DNA of 64,000 bases from Escherichia phage alia, in the sequence record NC_052655.1. The stretch is one strand, 5' to 3'. The notes beneath the pieces were generated by a model. It worked only from the letters and a program-made list of their open reading frames with translations, ran no database searches and was not told the origin of the DNA. Position numbers and translations under genes: made by a program. Shown one piece after another: positions 14,829-34,566 of this stretch (positions are counted from its first letter, which is position 1; the number at the start of each line of letters is the position of its first letter).

Positions 14829-15464
14829 ATGGGAATACCATTTGATTTAAAACTTGATGGTTCTAACGATTTAGTAATGGTGGATGGTGATTTAACACTA
14901 ACCACAACTAAAAGTGAAATTGCAGCACAGACGCTTGGAATAACACTTAGAACTTTCCGTGGAGAATGGTTCCTCAACTCTAATTTTGGGGTTCCATATC
15001 TGCAAGAGATTATTGGTGTTGCCAAGAAGAAAGAGATTGTTGATCGCATTTTCTTATCAACTATCGCAAGTAATGTTTATATAGATAATATTAATTCCTA
15101 CACATCCTCTTATGATAGAGATGATAGGTATTACTCAATGAACGTTACTGTTACAGTTGGTGAACAAGTTGTTAGTGCGCTGTTCAGTACACAGCCGTCT
15201 GAAGAATATATCTATCCAGAAGCTGGTGATGATAATGCAGCAATCACTTGTGAAGCATTTGAAATTGTTGAATCTGCAAATAGACTCTATCGCTTTATTA
15301 ACATTGTTGGTCTTCCTAAAGATACTTATTCTACTTGGTGGAATGAGTGGTCTAACGAGGCATTGTTTGAAAAATACCTTGTTAACGAAGCCAATAAAGG
15401 TCTTGCAACCAATTACAACTATGCTATAACAGCAACAATGGGAGCTACAAATAATAATGGCTGA
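14829..15464 (+). CDS. hypothetical baseplate protein
   Basis: 211 aa ORF with GGAGG SD directly downstream of the spike gene. Confidence 0.45.
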   Translation: MGIPFDLKLDGSNDLVMVDGDLTLTTTKSEIAAQTLGITLRTFRGEWFLNSNFGVPYLQEIIGVAKKKEIVDRIFLSTIASNVYIDNINSYTSSYDRDDRYYSMNVTVTVGEQVVSALFSTQPSEEYIYPEAGDDNAAITCEAFEIVESANRLYRFINIVGLPKDTYSTWWNEWSNEALFEKYLVNEANKGLATNYNYAITATMGATNNNG

Positions 15465-15930
15465 TTTAACTACAATCAAGGTGTCTGATCTACCTGTAAC
15501 AACATCTGTTTCAGACACAGATTATTTTGTAACAGATCAATCAGGCATCACTAAGAAAACATCATTACGTGTTCTTCTTGCGGGTGCTGGTGTTACACGA
15601 AATCGTCTTTCTGCAAGGGGTACTGTCACAAATACCCTAGCTTTAGATATTAGCACGGCAGAGTATTTCTCTGCCACTTTATCTAGTCCAACTTGCAGTA
15701 TTTCATTTAGTAATGTTCCAGTTACAACTAACATTGTTCAAAACTTTACGCTATCCCTACGTCAAGGCAGTGGAGCAAATAAAGTAACGTGGCCTCAATC
15801 TGTTAAATGGAGTTTTGGTCGCGCTCCTGTTTTGAGTTATAAACAGGGAGCTACAGATATTTTTGAATTTGTTAGTTATGATAATGGAGCTACCTGGATA
15901 GGTAGTTTAGTGATGGCAGGAGTGATTTAA
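15457..15930 (+). CDS. hypothetical tail-fibre-related protein with fibre-type N-terminal motif
   Basis: 157 aa; its N-terminus (TTIKVSDLPVTTSVSDTDYFVTDQSGITKKTSLRVLL) shares a pattern with the N-terminus of the 20983 tailspike (TITNLPETSKVNGSDYLVLDQPDKTVKSTVSNFL). Confidence 0.5.
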   Translation: MADLTTIKVSDLPVTTSVSDTDYFVTDQSGITKKTSLRVLLAGAGVTRNRLSARGTVTNTLALDISTAEYFSATLSSPTCSISFSNVPVTTNIVQNFTLSLRQGSGANKVTWPQSVKWSFGRAPVLSYKQGATDIFEFVSYDNGATWIGSLVMAGVI

Positions 15931-18806
15931 TGTCAAGAATTAAGCACAGAATTGACAATGTTTTTCAACTGATCGATGGACATATTCAGTTCTTAGATCG
16001 TAATACAGGTTTAACTGTAGATCCTACAGTGCAACACTATGTATTAAACCCACAAAACGTTCTAGCTAATAACAGACACTTTATAAACTGGACTGCTCAA
16101 GAAGGGCAACCAAACGGGGATGCTACAACAGAAGGTCAATCCGTGCTTATTCTTGGTTGCGCTTATGCATACCTAGCTTCCGGCGATACAAAGTATTTAG
16201 ACTCTGCTAAAAAATATTGGCAAGCCTATATAGATTACTTCTTTGGTGGTCAACCTATCCCAGATCCGCCAGCAAAGTATCGCCCTAACTGGATTATTAA
16301 CGGTAAAGAACCACGTCTTGCACATTATCCTCTTACAGATGATGGCTACCCTACACACGGAGGTTTTAAGGGTAGCTTAATGACGTGGACTAACGGTAGA
16401 ACAGTTATTCCTCATGGTGCTCCACATTGGGGAGAATACCTTGACAAAGCATGGTTTGCTTTTAATGGTAATCTAGGATGGAACTCTGTAAACGCTACAG
16501 TATATGCTGTTAATGCAGATGGTACAACAGATTGGTCTAAGAAGGGAGATCAATGGGATGTTGATTGGATCATTGATCGTCTAGGACGTAAAGTTGATTG
16601 GGATGGAAATATCTTAGAAGAAGGTTTTCCAACATCTCAATACGGAACAGTTCAACTAAAAAATACTTCTGTAAATGGTACATATAAATTTAACTACGCG
16701 ACTTGTAACCCTGTTGAACACGGTGGTTATTTAATGGAGCGTAACACTATGTGGCATAACAGACCAGTTAACGTTCCGGTAGAAATGGGCTTTCAGGATA
16801 ATGCGTCAGATGCCGAAACTTGGTGGTGTGATGCTAACTACCTGATGTACCAAATTACAGGAGAAAGAAAATATTGGCTATGCTGGCAGTCTTCACTGTT
16901 AGTGTGTCAAGATTACTCAAACATTGATATGTTTGATAAATTCTTCCGTAAGTCTACATATGCAACTATCCCGTTTACAGATGGCATCTCTTACGATTAT
17001 TCGTATCCATCTACAGCAATACCTAAATATTCAAGAGATACTTTAGGCTATATTGTTATTAGACAAGATGTTGCTGCTCAAACAACATTAGAACAGCAAG
17101 CCATTTGGTTTAAAGTTGATCAGAACTCTAAGTTACGAGTCCAGTTTCAAGGTGTAGATGACGCAGGACATGGTATTCTTTTCCGTCCAGAGTTGGAATT
17201 AAGTAAGACCAAAGATGAAAATAACACAGTAACTTACCGTTGTGGCTTACCATTAGGTACAGCTAATATGACAAGCATGGATATCCCATTATCCAGCTTT
17301 ATGAGAAGTACCCCTCCAAATGGTGGAACATATATTATCGCAGATCCGCGAATTATTGTTGACTGGGGTGACAAAACTGTGGTACAATTTAAGTATGTAA
17401 CAGGTATTGCTGGAACTAATGATGACCAGATTGTTACTGCATCAATGGATACGGATGGTGGTGTCACTGTTGGTTTTTGGTTAACCCCTACATCAAAAGC
17501 TAATGTTAAGTCTATCACATATAGAACATATGAAGATGACTTTAACATGACTATCACGGATGCTCAAGGTTGGAGATGGTGGGCTATGCTACCTAAAACG
17601 CAAGGAGCATGGAGTACGAAGACTTTATCAGCTTCTGATTTTCAGTTAAGTGCTTATCAGCCTAATCATCCAGATACAGATCCTAAACCTTCAGCAATAA
17701 ATCTTACTGCGGTAGATCAGGTAAATTTAGTTCTTGATACGGCTCCTGTCAATGGTTTAACAGGAACAATAGATTTCTATTGTATTAACGATGTACCTGA
17801 AAGATATTCGTCATCTTCTGGTGATGATTATACCATGTACTTCCGTATTACTGTACAGGCTTCAAGTCCTCACACTGCTAAGTTAGGTGATTGTACTATT
17901 ATTGACTATAAGTTAAATAGTCTTAATTACACACCAGGAATAATTCCATTCTCTAATATCAGTGACCCAAACACTGCATTATACGATGGATGGCGTGGTA
18001 TTCCATACCCAGGATACCAGTATCCTTCCTTATACTGTTTCGCAGGTAGGGATATTGATTGGACACGTTTAAACAACAGTATTGATTTCTTGTATGATGC
18101 TCAAATGTGGTTTTATAACACGTTTGATCCTGTGATGCCTGGGCCTATGGCACAAGCATATGTGTGGGATCGTTGGGATGCAAGAAAATACGGTGAACCT
18201 AATACGTTTACTATGAAACACTGGAATGAAAAAGCGTGGGATGGTTATGAAGCTCGTGCATTCTACTGTGCTTGTCATGCTGTGTACGAACTTGTACAAA
18301 GAGGAGAAACACCTCCTGAAAAACTAGTAACAGTTTGTAAAAATTGGATCAACTATCTTAAATGGTTCCAAGACAATAATGATGGAAGAACACCAACTAT
18401 CTTTAACCCAGATGGTACAGTTCTTGCGCCTATAGATGACTTTACTAGCCATATGTCTGCACTGTTTATGGCGGGTTGTTCAATCATGGGCTTGGCAGGT
18501 TATGATTCACAAATTCCAAACATTGGTATTGTAGCAGACAGATGTTTTGATCTGATTCAGCAAAACTATATTGTGCTTTCCCCTAACCATCCGATGAATG
18601 GTTCCTGGAGTGTTGCACCACGCCCAGATTCAGATAACGGAATGTTCTTTGGTTTCCATGCTGGAGAACTATTACGTGGTTTTGGTTTATATGCCTTGTA
18701 TCGTAAACTAAACCCTCAAAACGCTTTACCAATTTTGGATAATAGTAACATACCAACACTAACTGTTCTAACTATGAATGATATTAGTGTTGATGTAACC
18801 AAATAA
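15930..18806 (+). CDS. large baseplate / tail-fibre-associated protein
   Basis: 958 aa ORF in the fibre region. No confident domain call; a possible glycosidase-like segment near the N-terminus is unverified. Confidence 0.55.
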   Translation: MSRIKHRIDNVFQLIDGHIQFLDRNTGLTVDPTVQHYVLNPQNVLANNRHFINWTAQEGQPNGDATTEGQSVLILGCAYAYLASGDTKYLDSAKKYWQAYIDYFFGGQPIPDPPAKYRPNWIINGKEPRLAHYPLTDDGYPTHGGFKGSLMTWTNGRTVIPHGAPHWGEYLDKAWFAFNGNLGWNSVNATVYAVNADGTTDWSKKGDQWDVDWIIDRLGRKVDWDGNILEEGFPTSQYGTVQLKNTSVNGTYKFNYATCNPVEHGGYLMERNTMWHNRPVNVPVEMGFQDNASDAETWWCDANYLMYQITGERKYWLCWQSSLLVCQDYSNIDMFDKFFRKSTYATIPFTDGISYDYSYPSTAIPKYSRDTLGYIVIRQDVAAQTTLEQQAIWFKVDQNSKLRVQFQGVDDAGHGILFRPELELSKTKDENNTVTYRCGLPLGTANMTSMDIPLSSFMRSTPPNGGTYIIADPRIIVDWGDKTVVQFKYVTGIAGTNDDQIVTASMDTDGGVTVGFWLTPTSKANVKSITYRTYEDDFNMTITDAQGWRWWAMLPKTQGAWSTKTLSASDFQLSAYQPNHPDTDPKPSAINLTAVDQVNLVLDTAPVNGLTGTIDFYCINDVPERYSSSSGDDYTMYFRITVQASSPHTAKLGDCTIIDYKLNSLNYTPGIIPFSNISDPNTALYDGWRGIPYPGYQYPSLYCFAGRDIDWTRLNNSIDFLYDAQMWFYNTFDPVMPGPMAQAYVWDRWDARKYGEPNTFTMKHWNEKAWDGYEARAFYCACHAVYELVQRGETPPEKLVTVCKNWINYLKWFQDNNDGRTPTIFNPDGTVLAPIDDFTSHMSALFMAGCSIMGLAGYDSQIPNIGIVADRCFDLIQQNYIVLSPNHPMNGSWSVAPRPDSDNGMFFGFHAGELLRGFGLYALYRKLNPQNALPILDNSNIPTLTVLTMNDISVDVTK

Positions 18807-18814
18807 GGAAAATA

Positions 18815-20974
18815 ATGAAACAGGCTATTTTTACTGTAACTCGAAATACGAGAGTAAATGCCAGTTCATTCAGCTATAAGACCGTCGATGGAACGGCGGT
18901 CGCTGGTAGAGATTATGTAGCTAAACAGGGAACAGTAACGTTCCCTTCTGATGCAGATTCTGCTACTGTAGTAGTTGATGTATATGAACGTCCGGCAAAC
19001 TCTTTAGATCTTTATTTTACTCTTGAGATTACTAGCATAAGTCAAAATAACATGATGATCAATGAAGAAATTCGTTGTGTTATTACGACTAATCAATCGA
19101 ATACAACCCCGCTAACTTGGCCTGTTGTGAAGTCTAGAATGTTTGATCCTAAGTTTTGGACAATAGATTCTCAATCAACAGAAAGTTGTTCTATTATCTC
19201 TAATGGTGATTCTTTCACGGCAAGAATGGTTAATAGGACAGTGGCTGGTCTTGCTGGGATTATTTGGTCAACTTACGATAAATATGATCACAAAGGATTA
19301 GGCTACCAAGAACATTCTGATTTAAGTAAAGAAAAACTTTGGTTTAAAATGGAACTTAGTCAAGGTGTTCCTGGATTAAAAGAAGAAAAATTAATGCCAT
19401 CCTTAACAGTGACACTGAAGGATGAAACAGTTCATTATGTATCTCTAAACTTTTATGCAGAAGAAGTTTCAGAGGACGGTAAAACAGCAATAATCAAATT
19501 AGATTTCTCAAATTTAAAATCTGGGCCAGAAAATGATATTGTTGTTGACACTACACAGATAGATAACATGTTCTTCTCTTTGATCTCCGCAAGGTATCAA
19601 GAAATTGAAGATGTTATACCTGTAGACAATATGGATCTTTCCTTTAAGTTTACCATACTAGAGCCTGATACTGGTTACAGTATGATGAATATGGGTAATT
19701 TAAATGTTCCGGCGCACACCATAAGAATGTGTACATCTTATGATGATATGTATAACCTAACCCCAGAGCGAGTTATTTCTAACACCTACAGATTAGGTTA
19801 TAGAGATATGATTAACCATTATAATGGTATGTCACACTATTATCAATTTAGTTGGGATGCTGGATCTAATAAATGGGCTTTGAATAGAACAGAATATTTA
19901 AACCCAGCAACAGAAGCCTGGTTTGATAATTTCCACGCTAATGCAAAAGCTATGGGCTACACAGTAATGAACTCCTTAAGTTTTGAACTTATGAGTACAG
20001 TGTGTCCTGTAGAATGGGTACAACATACTTGGAATGATGATCTGGCTGCTACAGGTTATGAGCCACCAAGTTATGTTTTATCTCCTTCAATTGATGAAGG
20101 GATGAATTATTTACAAGGTGTGATAAATAAGATAGCTTCTATATCCGCTGCCAATGATCTTCCGGTTATTATTCAGGTTGGTGAACCGTGGTGGTGGTAT
20201 AACACAGCTACCAATCTACCGTGTATTTATGATTATACAACCAAAGTTGCATTTAATAATGAAACTGGATTATATGCACAAGATGTTGGTACAGTTAAAA
20301 ATTATAAAACTGGTACACCATATGATGAATATTATGCATTCCTATCTAAAACATTAGGACTGCGTGTTGCTAAATTTGCAACAGATACCAGATTAGCATA
20401 CCCTGGAGCGAAAGTTACATTGTTACCATTTGTACCATCCATCTTAGGTAATGGTATGATGGAGTTTGTTAACTTCCCTAAAGATTATTATATTCCAGAA
20501 AACTTTGACTTTTATTGTTCAGAATGTTATGACTGGTTGTTGGAAGGTAAGATGGAAAGATCTTTCGACGCTATCAAAATACCTAATGAGCAACTAGGTT
20601 TTAGTTACGATAAGATACATTATCTTGCAGGGTTTGTTCCAGATGCAACTCTAGCACCATTATATGGCTTTGATCCTGAATCAAACTATAGAACATATTT
20701 GTGGAAAATGATTATAGGCAATATTGTATTGAATGACCAGAAGTTTGTTGGTTTATATCAATACATATGGGCTTACCCACAAATAATGCATGATTCAATA
20801 ACTGTTCTTAATTCAAAATCCCAAGTGTTTTATATGGGTAATGTGCCTTTGAATTGCTACTTGCAAGATATCACTCTTAAACAGGTAAATGTTGAGATTG
20901 CCACTATAACTGGAATTACATTAGCCACTAAATCTGGAGAAGATTTAGTAACAACACAAAAATTTTATATATAG
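18815..20974 (+). CDS. large tail protein with N-terminal Calx-beta-like domain
   Basis: 719 aa with AAGGAA SD. N-terminal SFSYKTVDGTAVAGRDYVAKQGTVTFPSDADSATVVVDVYERP matches the Calx-beta pattern (DGTA.AG.DY...G...F). Confidence 0.55.
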   Translation: MKQAIFTVTRNTRVNASSFSYKTVDGTAVAGRDYVAKQGTVTFPSDADSATVVVDVYERPANSLDLYFTLEITSISQNNMMINEEIRCVITTNQSNTTPLTWPVVKSRMFDPKFWTIDSQSTESCSIISNGDSFTARMVNRTVAGLAGIIWSTYDKYDHKGLGYQEHSDLSKEKLWFKMELSQGVPGLKEEKLMPSLTVTLKDETVHYVSLNFYAEEVSEDGKTAIIKLDFSNLKSGPENDIVVDTTQIDNMFFSLISARYQEIEDVIPVDNMDLSFKFTILEPDTGYSMMNMGNLNVPAHTIRMCTSYDDMYNLTPERVISNTYRLGYRDMINHYNGMSHYYQFSWDAGSNKWALNRTEYLNPATEAWFDNFHANAKAMGYTVMNSLSFELMSTVCPVEWVQHTWNDDLAATGYEPPSYVLSPSIDEGMNYLQGVINKIASISAANDLPVIIQVGEPWWWYNTATNLPCIYDYTTKVAFNNETGLYAQDVGTVKNYKTGTPYDEYYAFLSKTLGLRVAKFATDTRLAYPGAKVTLLPFVPSILGNGMMEFVNFPKDYYIPENFDFYCSECYDWLLEGKMERSFDAIKIPNEQLGFSYDKIHYLAGFVPDATLAPLYGFDPESNYRTYLWKMIIGNIVLNDQKFVGLYQYIWAYPQIMHDSITVLNSKSQVFYMGNVPLNCYLQDITLKQVNVEIATITGITLATKSGEDLVTTQKFYI

Positions 20975-20982: not shown

Positions 20983-22707
20983 ATGTCAACTACAATTACT
21001 AATTTACCGGAAACATCAAAAGTTAATGGTTCTGATTACCTAGTTTTAGACCAACCTGATAAGACCGTTAAAAGCACAGTTTCCAACTTTCTTACTAACA
21101 CTGGGGTGGTTGCTGCGGGGAGTGATACACCTAGAACATTATCCGATAGATTTGCTGATGTATTTAACGTTAAAGACTTTGGTGCAATTGGTGATGGAGT
21201 TGCTGATGATACAGCAGCAATACAGATAGCTAATGATGCAGCTACAGAAGTGGGTACTACTTTGTTCTTCCCTAAAGGGGTGTATCGTTGTACTGATGGT
21301 ATCGACAAGACTTGTGAATGGGTAGGTTCAGGTGCTGCAAAAATAGGTGCTTTTCCTCTTACGGATGATAAAGTATTTATGATACCAGGAATCAAGAACA
21401 AACTACCTGGTACTTGCTTGTTATTCACTGGTGTAGGAACAAAATCTTTCTCTACAAATAGAGAAGACGAGTTCTCTAGTGTACGCTATTGTGTGTTAAA
21501 TAAGGGAAGGAAAGGGCAAGGGTTAACACCTTTCGGTAAAGACCTAGCAATAGTGTGTGATTTTAACTATAAGAATACACTAGACGGAGAAGTTACAGAT
21601 CCTACTAATGACAACTCTGCGGATTACGATGTAGGGTTGTTAATGCACAATACAGACCTATCTGGCCCATCTAATGTAACAGTCGGGGGGTATTTCAAGG
21701 TAGCAGGTACAATGCACTTTGGGCAAGACCCTGACGGGTGTACTGTATATGAATTAAGGACTATGGGAAACATTGGCCTAGCTATAGTAGGGGATGGCAC
21801 TGGCACTAATAGTGCATTTAATATGCACGGTGGTGCTATCTTTGGAAACGACCATCACAGCCGTAACGTAGAGTCCGGTGTAGAGAAGTGGGGAAAACAT
21901 GCACTATACATAGACATCCCATCTTCTGTAGGTTCTGGTTCACGTAATGGTATCTCCTTCCATGGAACATGGCTGGCAACTAAGTTAGATGTTCCAGTAA
22001 AATATGACAGATGCGGTGCTATCCAATTCTTTGGTGTGGTGTTTGAGAATGCAACACAAACAGGTAGCCAACAAGCTGGAGGTATTAAAAAACAAATTGG
22101 AACCAGTAATACAGGTGATATAGGTTTCTTTGGGTGCAGATTTAATTCAGACCAGATACGTATTTCTGGTGCTTTATTGGATACTGCGACGGAATCGACA
22201 GTGATCGTTTCTGGAAGTAATGCTGGATATGGTGTTGAATTTTGGAAAGGAAAGGTTGGAGGGCGTTTTACAGGAAGCAAAAATCAAACAAATATTCAAC
22301 TAACGGATGATCCAACAAAAACAACTAGTGGTGTGGTTCTACGTCGTGATTCTTCTGGTAATTTTAATATCTTACATAACAATGATATTAAATTTACATG
22401 CGACGGTGGGGGGATTAAGACCCACCTATCATCAACTGTAGCTACAGTTAGTGGTGGTCAGACTAATATAACTAGAAACTTGCACAAGCTAAGTGGTGGT
22501 ACTCAAGAGTTAAACACATTGAACGGTGGAGTCGAAGGGATGCGTGTTGTTTTAGTGAGAAACACATCTGCCGACACAATTACACTAAAGAATCAAACAG
22601 GTAATTTACGCATCAATGGGGACTTTACTCTAGGAGCCTTCGACACTATAGAGCTAATTTACATAGGTGGTTATTGGAATGAAATAGGACGAGTTGACAG
22701 GGCTTAA
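20983..22707 (+). CDS. tailspike protein, pectate-lyase-like beta-helix (depolymerase candidate)
   Basis: 574 aa with AGGAG SD. Motif FNVKDFGAIGDGVADDTAAIQ is typical of pectate-lyase-3 / tailspike beta-helix domains; fibre-type N-terminal anchor motif. Confidence 0.7.
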   Translation: MSTTITNLPETSKVNGSDYLVLDQPDKTVKSTVSNFLTNTGVVAAGSDTPRTLSDRFADVFNVKDFGAIGDGVADDTAAIQIANDAATEVGTTLFFPKGVYRCTDGIDKTCEWVGSGAAKIGAFPLTDDKVFMIPGIKNKLPGTCLLFTGVGTKSFSTNREDEFSSVRYCVLNKGRKGQGLTPFGKDLAIVCDFNYKNTLDGEVTDPTNDNSADYDVGLLMHNTDLSGPSNVTVGGYFKVAGTMHFGQDPDGCTVYELRTMGNIGLAIVGDGTGTNSAFNMHGGAIFGNDHHSRNVESGVEKWGKHALYIDIPSSVGSGSRNGISFHGTWLATKLDVPVKYDRCGAIQFFGVVFENATQTGSQQAGGIKKQIGTSNTGDIGFFGCRFNSDQIRISGALLDTATESTVIVSGSNAGYGVEFWKGKVGGRFTGSKNQTNIQLTDDPTKTTSGVVLRRDSSGNFNILHNNDIKFTCDGGGIKTHLSSTVATVSGGQTNITRNLHKLSGGTQELNTLNGGVEGMRVVLVRNTSADTITLKNQTGNLRINGDFTLGAFDTIELIYIGGYWNEIGRVDRA

Positions 22708-22712
22708 CTAGA

Positions 22713-22734
22713 CAGTGCGTAAGCACTGCTTTTC
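22713..22734 (+). terminator. intrinsic terminator after tailspike gene (GUAA loop)
   Basis: CAGTGC-GTAA-GCACTG stem followed by CTTTTC. Confidence 0.6.
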
Positions 22735-22829
22735 ACACAACTTTTCTTAAAGGTTATCCTAGAGATAGCCTTTCTGAATGGGTGGTATCAGAAAAGTTAT
22801 TCCATGCATCTGTTTCCCTGTAACACTAT

Positions 22830-22851
22830 CCCCTCTCTGGAGGGGTTTCTT
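22830..22851 (+). terminator. second hairpin terminator in intergenic region
   Basis: CCCCTC-TCTG-GAGGGG perfect stem followed by TTTCTT. Confidence 0.5.
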
Positions 22852-22871
22852 AGAAAAACAAAGAGGTACTT

Positions 22872-23021
22872 ATGAACGAATTATGCTCCCAAGGCGGTAT
22901 TGCCCCAGGTACTACTGCCATTAGTCTTAGTGCTGCTGTACTTGTGCATTCAGCGGGTTCTGTAGACCTTGGGGAATTAGCTGTATCTCGTGATTTAAAA
23001 AGTAATGAGAACGCACTATGA
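22872..23021 (+). CDS. small hypothetical protein (49 aa), not in ORF track
   Basis: ATG at 22872 preceded by AAAGAGG at optimal spacing; its TGA stop overlaps the next ATG (ATGA). Translation MNELCSQGGIAPGTTAISLSAAVLVHSAGSVDLGELAVSRDLKSNENAL. Confidence 0.35.
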   Translation: MNELCSQGGIAPGTTAISLSAAVLVHSAGSVDLGELAVSRDLKSNENAL

Positions 23022-25395: not shown

Positions 25396-26379
25396 ATGGC
25401 AAAGCCACAATACTACCCTGACTGGGCGACACAAACAGTAACCCTCCCAGGAACGGGAAACACAAACAAGATTAGACCAAAAGAAACCATCCGTAATGTT
25501 GGTATGGACTTTGGTCAGATTATGACTTGTGAAGAAATGAACTGGATCTTAAACAATATTGGGTCTTGGATTCGCTATATGCAAGATGAATTCTTCCCAA
25601 CATTGCCTACGACATATCTTCCTATAGTCGGTACTAAAATTACAATGGCAGGTGATGCTACAGGTGAAGTTACATGGAATGGTGATGCTGCTGTAACATT
25701 ATCTATTCAAGTAGTAGATAACAGTCATAATCACTTATCAGCTAACATTACAGACGCAACATCGAACCAAGTTGTAGGAAATGTCCTTGTTAAGCGTGAT
25801 AATGGTGGTGCTATCTATGCAGGTGATATTTACACTTGTGGTACAGGTGCTACAGATCCTGCAACATTATTTTTTAGAAACTATAATGGACAAACAGTAG
25901 GCAATATGTCTTCTGAACCAGGTGCAGGTGGTCAACTCTATATTTATAGAATAAATCCATCTACTGGAGGAACATCTTGTGGAGTCCGTTTGTATGATGC
26001 AGGTTATGTTTTAATAGACAATCCTCGTTCTAATTCTGGTCAAGATACTGGCAATGGTAATGCTCTTGTAAGATTAGACTATCTTAACTCCAGACTAAAC
26101 TCATTGCAAAGCACACTGCAAAATAATATTAACAACGTTAATAGTAACTTGCAAGGCCAAATTAATAGCATTAACAATAGAGTTTCTTCTGTTGTGTCTG
26201 CTATCCGTCTTGGAACACGTATTCAAGCTGGTGTATCTGAGTCTCGTTTCTATGCTGGTCACGTGATCACAGGTTGGGGTTTTGGTGACAAGAAAGAACT
26301 TCGTGGTGCTTGGTATTGGTCAGCCCCGCTACAATATTATATTAATGGTAGCTGGATAACAGTAACCAACGTTTCGTAA
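25396..26379 (+). CDS. tail fibre protein
   Basis: 327 aa with AAGGAG SD; central Asn/Gln/Ser-rich coiled-coil-like segment (LNSRLNSLQSTLQNNINNVNSNLQGQINSINN). Directly upstream of a tail fibre assembly chaperone gene. Confidence 0.6.
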   Translation: MAKPQYYPDWATQTVTLPGTGNTNKIRPKETIRNVGMDFGQIMTCEEMNWILNNIGSWIRYMQDEFFPTLPTTYLPIVGTKITMAGDATGEVTWNGDAAVTLSIQVVDNSHNHLSANITDATSNQVVGNVLVKRDNGGAIYAGDIYTCGTGATDPATLFFRNYNGQTVGNMSSEPGAGGQLYIYRINPSTGGTSCGVRLYDAGYVLIDNPRSNSGQDTGNGNALVRLDYLNSRLNSLQSTLQNNINNVNSNLQGQINSINNRVSSVVSAIRLGTRIQAGVSESRFYAGHVITGWGFGDKKELRGAWYWSAPLQYYINGSWITVTNVS

Positions 26380-26388: not shown

Positions 26389-26940
26389 ATGAAAAAAGAC
26401 GTTATTTTTACAGGTTTTGAATTGTATGAACCAGAATTAACAGAAGAAAATATTCTTTATCTCTCTGTTGGTGGTGGTTTTTTGCAAGACAAAGATGGTA
26501 ACGACTGGTATCAGCTTCAAAAAACTTTGATGGTAGAATATCCCGACGCTTATTTTATTACCTTAGATGATAATAATATTGTACGTGGTGCTACTAAAGA
26601 TGTTACTACCTATTTCCCTGCCGGACAATCTATTTTAGTTACATATAATGCACCAGATAAAATAGAAGATGAAAGTAATATTGGCTCTTGGCAATATGTT
26701 GAAGGTAAATTTGTTCCTCACAATAGTCTTGCTATTGAAGATGCTACTCTTAAGTTAGAAAAGGAGTTAACTTGGGCTACGAATCAAGTGTCTGCGATTC
26801 AAGATTTAGAGGAATTACAAGGTTTATCTGAAGAACAAAAAGATTGGTTAGGAAAAGTTAAACTCTATCGTGCAACATTAATTCAAATTAACGTTGAAGA
26901 TGCACCTAATATAACTTGGCCTACAAGACCTAAGAAATAG
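26389..26940 (+). CDS. tail fibre assembly chaperone (Tfa-like)
   Basis: 183 aa; C-terminal SEEQKDWLGKVKLYRATLIQINVEDAPNITWPTRP matches the conserved Tfa C-terminal pattern (W..YR..L..VD...AP.I.WP..P). Confidence 0.65.
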   Translation: MKKDVIFTGFELYEPELTEENILYLSVGGGFLQDKDGNDWYQLQKTLMVEYPDAYFITLDDNNIVRGATKDVTTYFPAGQSILVTYNAPDKIEDESNIGSWQYVEGKFVPHNSLAIEDATLKLEKELTWATNQVSAIQDLEELQGLSEEQKDWLGKVKLYRATLIQINVEDAPNITWPTRPKK

Positions 26941-26949: not shown

Positions 26950-27291
26950 ATGGAGCTAACAGAAGTATGGGATATCGCTAAAGAGGCGATTATCCCTCTT
27001 ATTGGCGTAATCTGGGTGGTCTTCAAACAGAAGATAGATGATATGGCAAGTGATTTGGACAAAATGGAAGACAAGTACCGCGAACTAGAAAAGAAGTTGG
27101 TGTTTGTTGAATCCACTTATGCTACCAAAGCAGAACTTGCTCAAATGCTTAACCAGATCAACTCTACATTAATGGCAAATAATACTGCCTTAGAACAGAA
27201 GATTGAAAAAATAATGGATTTAAAAAATGCTCCTGTTCAATTAATGTTAGAGGAGATTACAAAGCGCACACAAAGTAAGGACAAAAATTAA
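26950..27291 (+). CDS. hypothetical protein with N-terminal TM helix and coiled coil
   Basis: 113 aa; hydrophobic AIIPLIGVIWVVF followed by a charged coiled-coil-like region. Function unknown. Confidence 0.45.
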   Translation: MELTEVWDIAKEAIIPLIGVIWVVFKQKIDDMASDLDKMEDKYRELEKKLVFVESTYATKAELAQMLNQINSTLMANNTALEQKIEKIMDLKNAPVQLMLEEITKRTQSKDKN

Positions 27292-29705
27292 TGGCGAATT
27301 TTCCAACATATCCTGCTACGACACTAGAACAAGGTGTTGATCTGGTTATATTCTCGTCTAACCAGATGCATGATGTTATTAATGGGGATGCTACAGCAAC
27401 TGTAGAAACCGAAACAGGTTTAATACCTACACTGCGTAAAGCACTTGTTGATAACTTCTTCTTTAAGAGTCCTGTTGCTTGGTCAGCAGGATCAACTGAA
27501 ACTGTATTTAACCAGTTACGTTATTTTGAAAACGGTATCTTGAGTGGGTACTATTATGCCCCATCTGCCACTACTGCGAACCCTGTACCTATGCAGGGCA
27601 CACCTGTAGGAGACAGTAACTGGACTCTGTACGCTCTTAAAACTGAACAGTTAGCTTCAGATGTGTATCCTTGGTATTTTAAAGGTGCTACAGGATATGA
27701 AACAGAAATCAGTCCTCCTTATATCTTTGATAATGCTATTGTCACCATTAACGGTGTAATTCAGATTCAAGGTGAAGCATTTACTATCAAAGATAGTAAA
27801 ATTATTCTGGCAGAACCATTAGGTTTAGATCCGTCTACTGGTCTACCTAACAAATTGTTTGCTTTTATTGGTAAAACAACAGCCTCTACTTCTTACGTAG
27901 AGAAAAACCTTTTGTCATCTACCACTGGTGCAGCAATGGTTGGTCTTCCATCTGGAGGCAACCTGTTACAAGCTCAATACTTTGTAACGCCTGAGCAGTT
28001 TGGTGCAATTGGTGATGGAGTTACCGATGATACTCAAGCAATTTTAAAAACCATTACTTTCGCTAACACGAATAACATTCAAGTACGTGCAGATAAGAAT
28101 TATAGATTCACAAGCTCAATTGCTATGTCTGGTATTCGTTGGTATGGTGGTACATTCACTGGTAACGGTGGAACAATGATTTCTACTGTGTCCTGTTGGA
28201 TGGAAAACGTTCGCTTTGAAAAATGTTATGTTAAGATGTTAGGTGGTGATTGCCGATTCTATCGTAATATCTTCTCCAACGCAACATCTACAGCAGCATT
28301 CTTAATGCAAGCAATGACAAGTGAAGGTACGTTGGACTTCAGTTACAACGAAATGTATGGTTGTAAATATGCGATCCTGCAACAAGGTACTGGAGAAGTA
28401 ATGACCTACGGGCGTTACTCTAACAACTATATTCACGATATCAAAGGTGATGCTATTGAACTTAACGTAGTTCAAAAACACTACACTGAAGGTTTGATTA
28501 TAGAGAATAACCACATTGCTAACGTAGATGCTTCTGGACAAGGTGCAAACTGGGGTATTGGTATTGGTGTAGCAGGTAGTGGCCCATATGGTGTTGATGT
28601 TCCTGATTCACAATATGTACGTAATTTCAGTATCGTTGGGAATAGGGTTTACAATTGCCGTCAATGTCTACACGTTGAAATGGGTAAAAACTTCACAATA
28701 CGTGATAATGAAGTTTATCCTAACACAGCAGTTTCAACAGGTACAGGTTTAACTACTTGTGGTGTTGCATTATACGGATGCCAAGATTTTGAAGTTGATG
28801 GTTTAACTGGTTATCTGCTCAATGATCCGTCTGTTTCAACACGTATGGTCTTTATTGACTGGGGTGTTAACAGTGGAAGATATGCGGGGCCACCAATTAA
28901 CTTTACAATTAAGAATTTGGATATTCCAGAATCTTCAATTGAGATTGCAACATCTGGATCAGATGCCTGGGAAAACTCTACAATTGTTAGTAATATCAAT
29001 TGTAATGTTTTTAAATGGCGTGGGCTACCATCTAGCTCTACCTTTAATAATATTCGTTGCCGTAGTATTGACTTTATTGGTCAACACGGAAGCGGAGAAG
29101 GAAGTGGTGGCGGTTTCTATACTCGCAGCCAATTCACGTATATGAAGTGGGTAGGATGTACAGCACTTAGCGGAGATGAAACAACAGTTTCTTTTGCTAA
29201 AATCTACACTGATCGTTGCGATCAGGTTGGAAATAACTTTGGTGTTCCAACTGCTGTTGATGGTACAGGTCATCGTGGGCCAGTTTTAACTACTATTTCT
29301 GAACAATATTTTACAGCTTATGATGAATTCCCAGGTGGGCGTGAATTCCCTACTGGAACAGTTATTCATTGTGCAAGCGGTAAAAAACATGTTGTTACAG
29401 TAGGTGGTGCTTTCTTTAGTGCCAACGAGAAAATAAAAGCAACTGTTACAGGTCAAACCTATCTACAGTCTAATGCTTTAAACTGGGCTAGTAATGGCTA
29501 CGCTAAAGCAGCAGGTACTAAGATTGTTATTCCAGGTGCAGGAGCAAATGGTGGCGATCTTGTGACAACTATAGCACGTGCTACGTATGTGACAAATAGT
29601 TTGTACACAATAGATATTGCAGATCCAATTGTAACACCTACAGCAGAGAATACACAAATTAAAGCTCTGAACCCTGTTACTTTTGTTACTGTCAATAATG
29701 CTTAA
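27291..29705 (+). CDS. tailspike protein, pectate-lyase-like beta-helix (second depolymerase candidate)
   Basis: 804 aa; motif FGAIGDGVTDDTQAILKTI; shares an identical 24-nt stretch with the first tailspike gene. Confidence 0.7.
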   Translation: MANFPTYPATTLEQGVDLVIFSSNQMHDVINGDATATVETETGLIPTLRKALVDNFFFKSPVAWSAGSTETVFNQLRYFENGILSGYYYAPSATTANPVPMQGTPVGDSNWTLYALKTEQLASDVYPWYFKGATGYETEISPPYIFDNAIVTINGVIQIQGEAFTIKDSKIILAEPLGLDPSTGLPNKLFAFIGKTTASTSYVEKNLLSSTTGAAMVGLPSGGNLLQAQYFVTPEQFGAIGDGVTDDTQAILKTITFANTNNIQVRADKNYRFTSSIAMSGIRWYGGTFTGNGGTMISTVSCWMENVRFEKCYVKMLGGDCRFYRNIFSNATSTAAFLMQAMTSEGTLDFSYNEMYGCKYAILQQGTGEVMTYGRYSNNYIHDIKGDAIELNVVQKHYTEGLIIENNHIANVDASGQGANWGIGIGVAGSGPYGVDVPDSQYVRNFSIVGNRVYNCRQCLHVEMGKNFTIRDNEVYPNTAVSTGTGLTTCGVALYGCQDFEVDGLTGYLLNDPSVSTRMVFIDWGVNSGRYAGPPINFTIKNLDIPESSIEIATSGSDAWENSTIVSNINCNVFKWRGLPSSSTFNNIRCRSIDFIGQHGSGEGSGGGFYTRSQFTYMKWVGCTALSGDETTVSFAKIYTDRCDQVGNNFGVPTAVDGTGHRGPVLTTISEQYFTAYDEFPGGREFPTGTVIHCASGKKHVVTVGGAFFSANEKIKATVTGQTYLQSNALNWASNGYAKAAGTKIVIPGAGANGGDLVTTIARATYVTNSLYTIDIADPIVTPTAENTQIKALNPVTFVTVNNA

Positions 29706-29712: not shown

Positions 29713-29730
29713 GGGCGAAAGCCCCTTTAT
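29713..29730 (+). terminator. intrinsic terminator (GAAA loop)
   Basis: AGGGGC-GAAA-GCCCCT stem followed by TTAT, then AAGGAG SD of the next gene. Confidence 0.6.
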
Positions 29731-29745
29731 AAAAGGAGTAGTAAA

Positions 29746-31707
29746 GTGATTTTAACACGTCCAAATAGTGCCATTGCAGACATGGTAGAGTCTCGCTATA
29801 GAAAGCGTAGAAGTTTTGCAAGTGGTTTTACCTTAAGAGATGCTCGTGAAGCATTGCTCTTTGAAGCTGACGGTAACTACTATCAGTGGAAAGGTTCTCT
29901 ACCTAAAGTTGTACCTGCTAACTCTACTCCTACATCTACTGGAGGGATTTCAGATACAGCTTGGAAAAATGTGGGTAATGCAGATGACATTGCTCAAATA
30001 GAATCAGAATTAGATGCTATTGAAGCTGAAATTGAAGATCTTAGAGAATCCATACCAGAAGCTGGTAAATCAGCTTACCAGATTGCCGTAGACAATGGTT
30101 TCCAAGGTACTGAGACACAGTGGTTGGCTTCTTTAAAAGGTGATCCAGGTGCTCCATTAAAGCTACTAGGGACGCTATCTAATACCAACCAATTACCTAC
30201 AACTGGAAACAATGCAGGGGATGCATGGATTGTAGGCGAGAATATGTATGCTTGGGATGGTACGGCTTGGAGAAAAGTAAACTCACAGGGGCCAGAAGGT
30301 AAATCTGCTTATGAAGTATGGCTTGCAGCAGGAAATGAAGGTACAGAACTAGATTATCTTGCTTCAATTAAAGGTGATAAAGGGGAGCCTGGCCCAGAGG
30401 GGCCACAAGGTGTGCCAGGTAATAATGCTAATGGTTTTGATTACCAAGGCGCAGCTAATTCCGTTTCAGATCTTCCTTCTGCATCTCATGGAAACACATC
30501 TCAAGCATGGAGTGTTGGTACATATCTATACGTGTCAAACGGTGTAGAATGGATCAATATGGGCGCTATAGTGGGGCCAAAAGGAGATAAAGGCGACAAA
30601 GGAGATAAGGGTAACACTGGTGATTCAGCTTATCAAGTCTGGTTAAATGCTGGTAACGTTGGTACTATTGACGAATATATTGCCTCTCTGAAAGGAGAAA
30701 AAGGTGATAAAGGAGACAAGGGTGATCAAGGTGAGCAGGGTATACAAGGCTTGACGGGGCCAACTGGCGCAGGGTTGACCATTATTGATATTCTGACTAA
30801 CACTTCTGAACTACCACAAACTGGAGAAGATGGTGATGGTTATCTAATCAATAATGAACTTTGGGTCTGGTTGCAAGGAGCCACAGAGTGGACAAATGTT
30901 GGTCGTTTAGCTGGTACTCCAATCACTGCAAAAGGACACGTTGCGTCTGCAAGTGCGCTTCCTCCTACAGCCAATTACGGTGATGCTTATCTGACGGAAG
31001 ATACAGGTCATCTTTACATTTACACCTATAATGAACAAACTCAAACTGCTGAATATGTAGATATGGGTAGTTTGAAAGGTGATAAGGGTGAAAAAGGTGA
31101 CGCTGGTACTAACGGTACAGACGGTGCAACTTGGATTGTTAAAACAACAGATCCAATCTCTAGTGATGGTAAACAAGGTGATTATGCCTTTAATATCTCC
31201 ACTGGTGAGGTGTTCTTAAAAACATCTGCAACTGTCTGGACTTCTCAAGGTACACTACCTAGCATCACAGATGCACCTAGTGACGGTAAGATCTATGCTC
31301 GTAAAGATGGAACATGGGAAGAACTCACTAGTTCTGTAGATGGTCAAGATATAGTTCCAACAAAAGTAACAACTAATTTTATAGAGGTTACAGCATACAC
31401 TAACAACTCTGTTACAGGGGACTGGACACCTCCAGGAACACATAACATGAATGTGTTGAATCTTACTGGTAACTCTACTATAAAAGCATGGCCTGGTGTC
31501 GAAGATAGCACAAAACCTAAACCATTCTCTGCAATAGTTTATCTTATCCAAGATGCCACTGGGGGTCATACTGTTACTTTAGATCCATCTTACAAAGTAA
31601 TTGGTTCTAGTGATATTAATACAGATCCTAACGGAGTAACAATACTACAACTAACATATTGTGGTGTTGGTGATTACGTGGATGCTATTGTTGCTAAACG
31701 CACATAA
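29746..31707 (+). CDS. collagen-like repeat tail fibre protein
   Basis: GTG start 7 nt after AAGGAG. Several Gly-X-Y tracts (GDKGEPGPEGPQGVPG; GPKGDKGDKGDKGNTGDS; GEKGDKGDKGDQGEQGIQGLTGPTGAG; GDKGEKGDAGTNGTDGA) and three copies of a ~30-aa module. Confidence 0.7.
   Translation: MILTRPNSAIADMVESRYRKRRSFASGFTLRDAREALLFEADGNYYQWKGSLPKVVPANSTPTSTGGISDTAWKNVGNADDIAQIESELDAIEAEIEDLRESIPEAGKSAYQIAVDNGFQGTETQWLASLKGDPGAPLKLLGTLSNTNQLPTTGNNAGDAWIVGENMYAWDGTAWRKVNSQGPEGKSAYEVWLAAGNEGTELDYLASIKGDKGEPGPEGPQGVPGNNANGFDYQGAANSVSDLPSASHGNTSQAWSVGTYLYVSNGVEWINMGAIVGPKGDKGDKGDKGNTGDSAYQVWLNAGNVGTIDEYIASLKGEKGDKGDKGDQGEQGIQGLTGPTGAGLTIIDILTNTSELPQTGEDGDGYLINNELWVWLQGATEWTNVGRLAGTPITAKGHVASASALPPTANYGDAYLTEDTGHLYIYTYNEQTQTAEYVDMGSLKGDKGEKGDAGTNGTDGATWIVKTTDPISSDGKQGDYAFNISTGEVFLKTSATVWTSQGTLPSITDAPSDGKIYARKDGTWEELTSSVDGQDIVPTKVTTNFIEVTAYTNNSVTGDWTPPGTHNMNVLNLTGNSTIKAWPGVEDSTKPKPFSAIVYLIQDATGGHTVTLDPSYKVIGSSDINTDPNGVTILQLTYCGVGDYVDAIVAKRT
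30049..30750 (+). repeat. internal tandem module repeats with collagen-like Gly-X-Y tracts
   Basis: Three related modules (SAYQIAVDNGFQGTETQWLASLKGDPG / SAYEVWLAAGNEGTELDYLASIKGDKGEPG / SAYQVWLNAGNVGTIDEYIASLKGEKGDKG), each followed by G-X-Y repeats. Confidence 0.6.
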
Positions 31708-31710
31708 TCA

Positions 31711-31735
31711 AAGCCCCTTCGGGGGCTTATTATTT
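31711..31735 (+). terminator. intrinsic terminator (UUCG loop)
   Basis: AAGCCCC-TTCG-GGGGCTT stem followed by ATTATTT. Confidence 0.6.
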
Positions 31736-31746
31736 AAGGAGATTAA

Positions 31747-34566
31747 ATGTATCCTATTCCTTTATTTATGTCAACAACATCAGCTTCAGTAGTAACAGCT
31801 ACATCTATAACTACTTCCTCTATTGGTATTGCAATAGTTGGTGGTAAAAAACAACTGACATACACAGTTACACCGGAAGATGGTGCATTATTTGATATAG
31901 CTTTTTCATCTTCAGATAATACCAAAATGGTTATAGATAATAGTGGTATGATGGAGTTTGTTGCCGAAGGTGGTTTTGATGCAATAATGACAGCTAAAAA
32001 TAATTTAGGTGCTGTCTTAACTGATCAATCTGGTGGTTATGCTTCAGAATTAAGTGTGTACACTGAAAGTCTATCGGCTATGGATGTAGGCACTACTCAA
32101 CAGTTGGTTGCTACAATCAGTCCAGAAGGTGCTAAAGACCTTCCAGATATGGTAATTACATACACCACAACAGATCCAGAAGTAGCTACTGTAAGCCCTA
32201 CAGGGTTAATAACTGCTCTTAAAGATGGCGGTTGCCGTATAGGTTGTACTGCAACGTATCAAGGAACAGTTGTGGCCTCTGATAGTTCTTATTTAGGTGT
32301 TAATGCTATTCCTGTTATTTCTAATGTAACAGCCGTGGCAAACAGCTATGGAGACGTTCGTGTTGCTTGGGATGTAGCTGATCCGCTAGACGGTGATACT
32401 TATACTGTAGAAGTATTAGATTTAAGTGATAATAGTGTCCAGTGGACTACAACAACCACGAATACTTACGCCTATTTTGATATCTCTGACTCTATTCCTC
32501 TTTATGGGTTTGCTCCAACATACCTTAAAATTAATGTTAAGAGCACCAAAGCAGCAGCCGTTATCTTTAATAACTCAATAGCTACAGATGATTCATTCAT
32601 TAAAGAAGTTATTGTCTTTGCTGGACAAGATAACGTAAATGCACACTTTACAGAACTATCTGGTGCAAATAAAGCAGCAATGGGTAGCACAACAGCCCGT
32701 AATGCATATGCTACGCAACGTGGTTTAGCAAATGCTGAAGTTCTTCCGTTAAATACAGCTTCTGGATCATCAGCAGCAGATAAATATGCTGACGATAAAG
32801 CTGGAACAGGTACACCAGATAACTACTGGTATGATCTGGATAACACAGCAGATGGGCCATGCTTAACTAACTTTATCACTAAAGTCACACCTTATGCAAG
32901 TAAGGTTAAAGCGATTATTTGGGGACAAGGTGAAAATGATGCTGTATCAGCATCTTCTACTGTTGCAGGTAGGTACAGTAACACTACACGTTACCATGAT
33001 GCTACGATAGCCATCTTTGATAAGATGCGTACAATAGTTCCTGCTTCTCAAGCAAAAATTGTTTGGCAGATCCTAGGACGTTCTTATTTATATGGTGTAG
33101 AAGTTAATGGTGTGGATTGGCAGAAGTACAGAAATGTACAAAGAACCATCTCTACAGCACGTGATGATGTTATCATTGGTTCTTGGGTAGATGGTGCTGA
33201 ACGTTACAGTGGTTATGTTTATGAAGAAGGTATTGATGGTCGTATCCATTATGTTTCTTCTGTATACCAAACAGCAGCTACAAAACTTGCTAAATCAGCA
33301 GCAGACGGTACAGACTTAACATCAACGTCACCTGTTTGGGTTGATATGGCTGTTCCAACTGGAGCAACAGCTACTTCCCAACCTAATCAAGATACAATTT
33401 TAGCATGGGATGCTCAAGGCTATAGTAAACACTACTTCCGTAATATTAACGTCTTAACTGCATCTGTATTAACTGAACAAACGCTTAATACGAACAGTTA
33501 TACGTTTACCTATGCAGATCAAGTAGAACAATATGGTTTTGCAGCAGGAACTACTATATTTGATGTTGCATATTATGACGAAGCAAATGATGTGTTATCT
33601 CCTTTAGTACGTTTTAATGTTAACGTTACAGCAGGAACCGTAGAAGATAAACCTGTCGTGATGGACTATGATTTGACGCAAGAAACTCTTCCATCAGATG
33701 TTAAGGTTAATGGTGGGAACTCTTTTGCTCGTGCTTCTGGAGATAAACTTGTAGCCACTAACACCTTGGTTGCTCCGTTGGAGTATGTTGGTACTACCCC
33801 TGTAGGTAGACGTGTAACAGCTAACACAGCTACACAAATTTTTGTCAACAACGCCTTAACAAGCGCAAGCCCGTGGATAAAGACCAAATTAACTGTTGCA
33901 GCTTCATCTGATAACTCTCCGGCTGGAACTACTGCTAATGTATTCAAATTAACTCCGACTACAACCTCTGGTAGTCATATCTTAACTGCAACATATACTA
34001 ACGCGTACAACATATCTGCCGGACGTAACTGGTCTGCCTCTGTTTTCTTGAAAGCGAACGGGATTACTAAGGCCAAACTAAGATTAAAAGCAGGAACTGA
34101 AGTTAATGAGGGTACTTTTGATTTAGCAGCAGGTACATTCACAGGAAGTGAAGCTAATATTATATCTATGGGCAACGGTTGGTATCGTGCTATTCTGCAT
34201 AAAACAGGGATAGCCAAACAGTCCTCCATAAGTTTTGAAATAATTGCCTTGGATGCAACTGGTGCGGAGATTTTCGCTGGAGATGGTACTAGTAACCTTG
34301 CAGTTTGGTTGCCACAGCTTGAAGGTGCTTCTACAGGAGAAACATCAAAAGCTGGATCGCCTTATGTCTGCATATATCCTGGAAATTTAGGAGGAGTATC
34401 CTTCACTATACCAAGGAACGGACATACTGGTGTGGATGTTTACTATTCCAACGGAGACGTTGTTCGTGACGTATTCTCTGGTACGGCATCTACTTGGACA
34501 ATAAACTACTCCAGCTTGTACGATTGGGGATCAGTCTTTATTACAGGTTTGAAATATTACGACTAA
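31747..34566 (+). CDS. tail fibre protein with Ig-like domains and SGNH/SASA-like esterase domain
   Basis: 939 aa; N-terminal bacterial Ig-like (BIG2-type) segments; motifs IVFAGQDNVNAHF and AIIWGQGENDA resemble the GQSN and W.QGE.. motifs of sialate O-acetylesterase-like SGNH hydrolases. Confidence 0.55.
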   Translation: MYPIPLFMSTTSASVVTATSITTSSIGIAIVGGKKQLTYTVTPEDGALFDIAFSSSDNTKMVIDNSGMMEFVAEGGFDAIMTAKNNLGAVLTDQSGGYASELSVYTESLSAMDVGTTQQLVATISPEGAKDLPDMVITYTTTDPEVATVSPTGLITALKDGGCRIGCTATYQGTVVASDSSYLGVNAIPVISNVTAVANSYGDVRVAWDVADPLDGDTYTVEVLDLSDNSVQWTTTTTNTYAYFDISDSIPLYGFAPTYLKINVKSTKAAAVIFNNSIATDDSFIKEVIVFAGQDNVNAHFTELSGANKAAMGSTTARNAYATQRGLANAEVLPLNTASGSSAADKYADDKAGTGTPDNYWYDLDNTADGPCLTNFITKVTPYASKVKAIIWGQGENDAVSASSTVAGRYSNTTRYHDATIAIFDKMRTIVPASQAKIVWQILGRSYLYGVEVNGVDWQKYRNVQRTISTARDDVIIGSWVDGAERYSGYVYEEGIDGRIHYVSSVYQTAATKLAKSAADGTDLTSTSPVWVDMAVPTGATATSQPNQDTILAWDAQGYSKHYFRNINVLTASVLTEQTLNTNSYTFTYADQVEQYGFAAGTTIFDVAYYDEANDVLSPLVRFNVNVTAGTVEDKPVVMDYDLTQETLPSDVKVNGGNSFARASGDKLVATNTLVAPLEYVGTTPVGRRVTANTATQIFVNNALTSASPWIKTKLTVAASSDNSPAGTTANVFKLTPTTTSGSHILTATYTNAYNISAGRNWSASVFLKANGITKAKLRLKAGTEVNEGTFDLAAGTFTGSEANIISMGNGWYRAILHKTGIAKQSSISFEIIALDATGAEIFAGDGTSNLAVWLPQLEGASTGETSKAGSPYVCIYPGNLGGVSFTIPRNGHTGVDVYYSNGDVVRDVFSGTASTWTINYSSLYDWGSVFITGLKYYD

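Follow-up and report, generated by a model that had tools for sequence, protein, structure and literature searches.

The adsorption-apparatus locus of Escherichia phage alia: a phi92-type gene block with a variable tailspike slot and N4 sheath-like modules

We analyzed a 64,000-nucleotide stretch of the genome of Escherichia phage alia (NC_052655.1; hereafter the window) and, within it, the genes at positions 15457-34566, in which a first-pass annotation made from the sequence alone had seen a multivalent adsorption apparatus comprising at least seven fibre, tailspike and adhesin candidates. This region very probably represents the adsorption-apparatus gene block of a phi92-like Escherichia coli myophage (Justusliebigvirus, Stephanstirmvirinae), orthologous gene for gene to gp140-gp153 of phage phi92. 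At the nucleotide level, it is 97.8% identical to Escherichia phage vB_Eco_J-01 (hereafter J-01) over 100% of its length, and matches more than 50 further Justusliebigvirus phages at 97-98.6% identity with approximately 90% coverage, such as PaulScherrer (Bas60), BME3 and VEcB; over the whole set of relatives, identity is 97-99%, with 89-100% of the region covered. All phages matching the locus are classified in or next to Justusliebigvirus, the genus of phi92, and the remaining part of the window, the replication half, matches these same phages at 98-99% identity. Phi92 and its relatives have already been described in the literature as possessing a multivalent apparatus for adsorption, in which several receptor-binding proteins act on glycans, together with a broad host range; for phi92, the apparatus was reported by Schwarzer et al. 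(2012; cited in PMC11984140 and PMC8594841). Thus, the multivalent reading is right yet already known, since the arrangement, the proteins and the interpretation have all been published, in the 2012 genomic and structural analysis of phi92, the papers on the BASEL phages, a paper on tailspike modularity and a 2026 cryo-EM paper.

The assignment was examined protein by protein against three genomes, those of phi92, PaulScherrer and J-01. Searches with tblastn against their annotated loci yielded one-to-one, collinear matches, which run from the tape measure (9822; phi92 gp134), tube initiator (11917; gp135), plug (12639; gp136), hub (13075; gp137), central spike (14088; the PHI92_138 product) and sheath initiator (14829; gp139) through gp140-143, the baseplate wedge gp145/gp146, the short fibre with its chaperone, the colanidase and the collagen-like fibre to a protein with immunoglobulin (Ig)-like domains. 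The seven long open reading frames (ORFs) that had been singled out, with products of 958, 719, 574, 327 (with a 183-aa chaperone), 804, 653 and 939 amino acids (aa), are all present on the plus strand, as are the other genes of the block. The homologues of gp140, gp141, gp142, gp144-147 and gp149-151 display 98-100% amino acid identity to phi92 (gp144, 96-100% to the relatives). The exceptions to this level of identity in the three genomes are the 574-aa protein, which is matched over its full length in J-01 only, and the tail fibre assembly (Tfa) chaperone, whose identity to the phi92 and J-01 chaperones is 81%. The locus accordingly shares with phi92 and other members of the genus (PaulScherrer/Bas60, J-01, VEcB) the gene order, near-identical proteins and the same anchor on the variable spike.

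Across the 50 or more relatives, the sole break in DNA homology coincides with the gene in the gp143 slot, which encodes a 918-aa endosialidase in phi92, whereas here, as in J-01, the slot is occupied by a 574-aa pectate-lyase-like spike (20983-22707) consisting of an N-terminal anchor (20983-21111) and a pectate-lyase-like body. Relative to phi92 and PaulScherrer, DNA homology extends up to 21111 (codon 43) and is regained at 22898 (PaulScherrer) or 23023 (phi92). The pectate-lyase character that had been proposed for this protein is borne out by an above-threshold match to PF12708 (RHGA-type cap; 46.5 bits against a cutoff of 27) at residues 61-110. Its PDB matches are to the beta-helix mannuronan C5-epimerases AlgE4 and AlgE6 and, weakly, to the Sf6 tailspike, and a weak match to Phage_depo_C (E 0.008) falls under the cutoff. 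Among 50,697 phage records, the full-length protein is found in J-01 only (99% identity), and further Stephanstirmvirinae match it over the first 45-138 residues only. The body (residues 51-572) shows 47% identity to tail fibre proteins encoded by the ~40-kb Rahnella phage Sarma103 and Escherichia phage P151. Judging from these sequence comparisons, the body of the gp143-slot protein is swapped behind a conserved 43-residue anchor and would have been acquired by cassette exchange. Because it is joined to the same 43-residue anchor as the gp143-slot spike of phi92, the 574-aa protein is predicted to be a strain-specific spike directed at capsule or O-antigen.

Anchor-conserving swaps of receptor-binding proteins have been described previously in Justusliebigvirus (Virol J 2023, PMC10408124). 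The alia locus resembles this modular exchange of E. coli phage tailspikes in that the break lies exactly after the 43-residue anchor and homology returns downstream of the gene, and in that the body is akin to a tail fibre protein of a Rahnella phage and an E. coli phage, both with genomes of ~40 kb. It differs in that the allele is found in just one other record of the phage collection and in that a truncated small ORF has been left behind as a scar. Positions 22899-23015 retain only the last 39 residues (62-100) of bas60_0028, a 101-aa protein that is intact in PaulScherrer and annotated there as 'tailspike protein', at 95% identity by blastx, and the 49-aa ORF at 22872-23021 that overlaps it is probably the scar of the cassette exchange. 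A remnant of the endosialidase chaperone domain was also considered for the interval 22708-23017 and was rejected: there is no match to the C-terminal domain of phi92 gp143, and the remnant derives from a different small ORF. The gap after the 574-aa gene also contains a terminator-like hairpin (22830-22845). Separately, a 44-nt stretch of the 574-aa gene (21178-21221) is identical at 39 of 44 positions, including all of the first 24, to a stretch of the colanidase gene (27999-28042); the encoded peptide is the FGAIGDGVxDDT motif of the beta-helix cap, and the stretch may be a hotspot of recombination.

The anchor has one further carrier in the locus. Position 15457, which had been taken as the start of the 958-aa protein, belongs to a separate gene (15457-15930) for a small, tail-fibre-like protein of 157 aa that is 100% identical to phi92 gp140; the 958-aa gene begins at 15930. 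The gp140 homologue matches PHROG 9017 'tail fiber protein' (E 1.3e-69) and has no match in a sequence search of the PDB. The shared N-terminal motif noticed in the first-pass annotation is real (14 of 38 positions identical, BLASTP E 7e-5), although its two partners are the 157-aa protein, at residues 9-46, and the 574-aa spike. Their Smith-Waterman score of 68 was reached by none of 20,000 shuffles, and all remaining N-termini in the locus score at most 30. In the arrangement that we propose, gp140 and the collagen-like gp151 would be additional small fibres.

Taken at face value, eight ORFs annotated as tail-fibre, tailspike or glycan-active, two of them with a common anchor motif suggestive of equivalent docking, might represent seven or eight independent fibres and spikes, each attached to the baseplate on its own and giving access to a different range of hosts. 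We consider this very unlikely, given that the cryo-EM structure of phi92 resolves three fibre types in six copies each (PMC13450770), so that 'at least seven' fibres or spikes exceeds what is seen in the virion. Furthermore, the gp141, gp142 and 939-aa proteins are globular and enzyme-like, with modules that are fused pairwise elsewhere (see below), and variation is confined to the gp143-slot gene where DNA homology in the 50 or more relatives is concerned, and to that gene and the chaperone in the three genomes compared protein by protein. Globular enzyme-like folds in place of beta-helix or fibre folds thus characterize three of the seven long ORFs (958, 719 and 939 aa).

The description of these genes as lying downstream of the baseplate genes holds only in part, because the range itself also contains both wedge genes, as well as two small ORFs (23018-23263 and 26950-27291) that do not encode fibres. 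The wedge is formed by the homologues of gp145 (495 aa, 23263-24750; Baseplate_J in Pfam, E 3.5e-11; 99% to phi92) and gp146 (209 aa, 24753-25382; DUF2612 in Pfam, E 3.5e-6; 99.5% to phi92). As for the two small ORFs, the gp144 homologue (81 aa, 23018-23263) is a small membrane protein (PHROG 1322 'membrane protein', E 4.7e-27), and the gp149 homologue (113 aa, 26950-27291) has a hydrophobic helix at its N-terminus and a coiled coil behind it. The latter is labelled a lipoprotein in PHROG and in J-01, and on account of the PHROG label a role as lipoprotein or superinfection-exclusion factor was considered; it was rejected, since the protein contains no cysteine. Cryo-EM of phi92 assigned roles to gp143, gp145, gp146 and gp147: gp145 and gp146 make up the wedge, fibres I and III attach to gp145, fibre I is an arm-like scaffold with an enzyme at its tip, and gp147, which resembles Mu-type fibres, was fitted into the density of fibre III (PMC13450770). 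By extension, the wedge of alia would carry several co-expressed fibres.

The short fibre of the locus is the 327-aa homologue of gp147, the phi92 'fiber III' (25396-26379), which is 98% identical to the phi92 protein, matches PHROG 4465 'tail fiber protein' (E 2.6e-108) and resembles the phiTE short tail fibre at its N-terminus (9cuy_c, E 1.9e-11). The proposal that a Tfa chaperone stands beside it proved correct: directly 3' of the fibre gene lies the 183-aa gp148 homologue (26389-26940), a chaperone of the lambda-gpK/Mu-U type, with a PF02413 Caudo_TAP match of 39.2 bits against a cutoff of 22.1 (E 9.3e-10). Folded with the help of gp148, gp147 would act as a short fibre that binds the cell surface. 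The chaperone allele is of the PaulScherrer type (98% identity), differing from that of phi92, to which, as to that of J-01, it is 81% identical, whereas the fibre itself is 98-99% identical in all three phages; from these sequences, two chaperone alleles appear to circulate.

The gp147/gp148 pair is related to the S/U pair of phage Mu (PMC8594841), which is invertible in Mu, and a 'switchable' host range had been offered as one implication of the many receptor-binding proteins. Genetic switching, whether through an invertible fibre segment, as in Mu and P1, or through a diversity-generating retroelement, is nevertheless close to refuted for this locus. The locus contains only one fibre/chaperone pair, in one orientation, and no minus-strand ORF of at least 80 aa at 25.4-27.3 kb; no invertase or reverse transcriptase is annotated in the locus or on either side of it in the three close relatives, although the ORFs flanking it in the window itself were not scanned; and co-expression of the fibres is described in the literature (PMC8594841). 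In the mechanism that we favour, all genes of the block would be co-expressed late genes, and for this reason the breadth of host range would come from many tools carried at once and not from switching. The phi92-like phages display very broad lysis host ranges together with a dependence on the NGR glycan (PMC8594841, PMC8669472, PMC11984140, PMC11990801).

Two of these tools are readily recognized by comparison with phi92. The 804-aa homologue of gp150 (27291-29705) is a colanic-acid-degrading tailspike, or colanidase: residues 180-804 match the phi92 gp150 structure PDB 6E0V with 1430 bits, the protein is 99.6% identical to that of phi92, it belongs to PHROG 6117 'colanic acid degradation', and it carries a TSP_Ig-like domain at the C-terminus. 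The near-identity to the colanidase structure is the solid result; the earlier description as a pectate-lyase-type spike rests on a weak, sub-threshold Pfam match (E 0.035) and on the FGAIGDGVxDDT cap motif in common with the 574-aa spike. The gp150 homologue would serve as a depolymerase spike that removes colanic acid. Residues 358-553 (window 28362-28949) also resemble WcaM, a protein of the host colanic-acid cluster (NCBIfam, E 6.5e-29), which hints at a common ancestry of the phage colanidase and the host gene. The adjacent 653-aa gp151 homologue (29746-31707; 98% to phi92 gp151) begins with a Tail_spike_N domain (TSP1/gp66; E 3.6e-21). The prediction of a collagen-like fibre is confirmed by a Pfam Collagen match (E 8.6e-8, 32.3 bits against a cutoff of 27.2) and by four G-X-Y runs of 6, 6, 9 and 6 triplets (residues 210-227, 277-294, 317-343 and 445-462). 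These runs alternate with repeated 'SAYQ..LASLKG' globular modules, and the protein also shows a weak foldon-like match and a C-terminal knob.

The remaining three large proteins are of a different kind. Sequence searches with the 958-aa gp141 homologue (15930-18806) against Pfam, NCBIfam and the PDB returned no match even at E <=1 and, since these searches were empty, the predicted structure is the only informative route to this protein. An AlphaFold2 model built from an alignment of 38 sequences (predicted local distance difference test score, pLDDT, 85.9; predicted template modelling score, pTM, 0.81) contains helical segments at residues ~1-110, 295-330 and 700-930, separated by two large beta-rich insertions of beta-sandwich type. 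As modelled, the helical segments form an (alpha/alpha)6 barrel, and the protein is predicted to be glycosidase-like. In its predicted barrel fold it is similar to the (alpha/alpha)6-barrel glycoside hydrolases GH8, GH76, GH105 and GH88, although identity to these enzymes amounts to 8-13% and the barrel helices are split by the two beta-rich insertions. The Pfam, NCBIfam and PDB searches place it in no CAZy or Pfam glycoside hydrolase family, and its invariant acidic residues are unmapped to a catalytic site. The family extends to Pseudomonas, Stenotrophomonas, Gluconobacter and marine sources, whose homologues align with gp141 over its full length at 44-57% identity; many acidic residues, E68, D294 and E296 among them, and many aromatic residues are invariant. 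For a receptor-binding protein, such conservation is unusually high.

The 719-aa gp142 homologue (18815-20974; 99% to phi92 gp142) links the locus to the podovirus N4. The Calx-beta-like N-terminus that had been recognized in the first-pass annotation is detected by Pfam at residues 4-80 (E 1.7e-9), and it is followed by NCTSP_N at 109-285 (E 4.8e-21, 75.3 bits) and TIM-barrel_NCTSP at 299-660 (E 9.4e-82, 275.2 bits), the cutoff being 27 for both of the latter. In the PDB, the protein matches N4 Gp64 (9lc0_M, E 3.6e-27) and the N4 sheath protein gp65 (9lc0_I, E 1.6e-11). Some GenBank records label gp142 as a deacetylase or phosphodiester glycosidase; these labels were not reproduced by Pfam or NCBIfam, and we refer to the domain solely as a TIM barrel of the N4 type. 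In N4, gp64 and gp65 form a receptor-binding sheath, gp65 also being the receptor-binding protein (PMC13434306). With its NCTSP_N domain and TIM barrel and its matches to both proteins, the 719-aa protein is thus similar to the gp64/gp65 sheath heterodimer (PDB 9LC0, 9YF4), and the similarity extends to biology, the NGR glycan pathway being needed by N4 and by phi92-like phages alike. There are also differences: here, the modules are distributed over two genes 11 kb apart in a contractile-tailed phage, and the proteins cannot enclose the non-contractile tail tube of a podovirus, as the N4 pair does in a six-fold sheath that binds NfrA.

The second of these two genes encodes the 939-aa N4 gp65-like protein (31747-34566). 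Its AlphaFold2 model (mean pLDDT 66) has approximately three confident Ig-like domains (~14-290), an alpha/beta domain at ~285-600 with an SGNH/SASA esterase fold, and a beta-sandwich at 730-939, with the domain of GTA head-spike-fibre type placed at 694-863 onward, the C-terminal part being recognized above threshold as the NCBIfam 'phage head spike fiber' domain. The best Foldseek matches of the model are to N4 gp65 (E 1e-22), to which PHROG 15324 also links the protein, and the Ig-like plus SGNH middle region typical of gp65 is present. Of the Ig-like and esterase-like domains that had been proposed, both stand, the first as a Big_2 domain and the second as a fold; what is missing is the canonical nucleophile serine of the esterase. 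Block I reads GQDN (residues 293-296, window 32623-32634), with D295 (codon 32629-32631) in its place, whereas distant N4-gp65-like relatives have GQSN or GQSH, and of the block-I motifs that a search of 1.84 billion representatives retrieved for the domain family, approximately two in three are GQSN. Block III, WGQGEND (392-398), and block V, ..GRIHY with H501, are conserved, with a D497-x3-H501 spacing in contrast to the canonical DxxH. The protein therefore shares the SGNH alpha/beta/alpha fold with the SGNH/SASA esterases (NanS 3PT5, 1ZMB, the CE2 family) but differs from these, as from most relatives, in having Asp in place of the block I Ser. Because Asp replaces the nucleophile, the SGNH domain more likely binds than cleaves an acetylated sugar. 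Other nucleophile losses (GGDN, GQAN, GDDQ and GQMN) occur in a minority of the domain family, which suggests that non-catalytic forms arose repeatedly. The intact 939-aa form occurs in alia, PaulScherrer and J-01; in phi92 (L003 31321-32983), by contrast, the gene is split and truncated: gp152 corresponds to aa 1-198, gp153 to aa 335-628, and residues 629-939, the last third, are gone.

Genes elsewhere connect the three proteins to each other. In a 1557-aa protein (P0093), a gp141-like part (45% identity) is fused collinearly to a gp142-like part (51%); the gene lies on the metagenome contig SRR10874396_272 (L004 6691-11364), in a tail module like that of SU10-like podophages, where it closely follows an adaptor gene of SU10 type. 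In four other proteins of 1100-1215 aa (P0157, P0163, P0253 and P0254), a gp142-like part is fused to the Ig/SGNH part of a protein resembling that of 939 aa. Occurring as they do in a podophage-like contig and in other proteins, these fusions indicate that the same modules serve contractile and short-tailed phages. They further suggest a single assembly built from gp141, gp142 and the 939-aa protein rather than three independent fibres. We propose that the three proteins may function jointly in recognizing glycans, as a conserved module whose likely target would be the NGR glycan: on K-12, phi92-like phages depend on wecB and nfrB (NGR), as does N4 (PMC8669472, PMC11984140), and, given that the three proteins show no variation among relatives, a conserved target such as NGR fits better than variable capsules.

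Taking this proposal one step further, gp141, gp142 and the 939-aa protein might together constitute the phi92-type 'fiber II' as a non-fibrous, N4-sheath-derived, NGR-recognizing assembly in which the SGNH pseudo-esterase is an acetyl-sugar lectin and the (alpha/alpha)6 barrel a processive glycosidase. We regard this specific version as speculative and, on present evidence, unlikely. If true, a fibre II derived from the N4 sheath would explain the misfit of fibre-shaped AlphaFold models to the fibre II density. Several considerations weigh against a joint recognition module. Its joint action is inferred from the fusions and from co-conservation; gp141 and gp142 go unmentioned in the 2026 phi92 cryo-EM paper, in which the fibre II gene is left unassigned (PMC13450770); and phi92 is viable with the 939-aa gene broken, so that this protein must be dispensable on at least some hosts. 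In addition, the part of the AlphaFold2 model that contains the esterase domain is of moderate to low confidence (pLDDT 40-88).

Some of the same evidence could be taken to mean that the main role of gp141, gp142 and the 939-aa protein is structural, as a scaffold of the baseplate periphery or fibre arms, with enzyme folds that are relics, non-catalytic in infection. Such a role would accord with the persistence of gp141 at 44-57% identity across distant hosts, unusual for a receptor-binding protein, with an SGNH domain devoid of its nucleophile Ser, with the structural sheath built by the homologous N4 gp64 and gp65 (PMC13434306) and with the arm-like scaffold described for fibre I (PMC13450770). 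The many invariant acidic and aromatic residues of gp141, although not mapped onto the model, would however fit a preserved active site, N4 gp65 is a receptor-binding protein in addition to its structural role (PMC13434306), and the dependence on NGR is common to N4 and these phages (PMC8669472). A mainly structural role is, in our judgment, somewhat improbable, if worth keeping in mind, for the three proteins that we tentatively assign to a glycan-recognition module.

Beyond the adsorption genes, the window has a GC content of approximately 38%, and its GC skew flips at ~34.6 kb, where the plus-strand structural operon meets convergent minus-strand genes. A terminator-like hairpin on the plus strand, a 10-bp stem followed by a T-run (34570-34593), faces these genes and, judging by its position, would close the structural operon. 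A pattern scan of the sequence for promoters and terminators yielded sites no more numerous than in shuffled sequence, and we therefore claim no operon substructure; a tRNA scan of the window found none. On the minus strand, the DNA polymerase gene (38414-40993) encodes an intein-free protein of 859 aa, whereas phi92 gp159 (3315 nt) and the PaulScherrer gene carry an intein of ~245 aa there.

As a discovery, the locus carries little weight, being near-identical to the textbook 'Swiss army knife' apparatus of phi92. Its practical use lies in a corrected gene-by-gene map and in the observation that strain-specific information is held in one slot, that of the 574-aa spike, which would make this the part to swap when engineering host range. 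For the biology of phi92-like phages, the pairwise fusions among gp141, gp142 and the N4 gp65-like protein, and the absence of the esterase nucleophile from the gp65-like protein, provide leads on the composition of fibre II.

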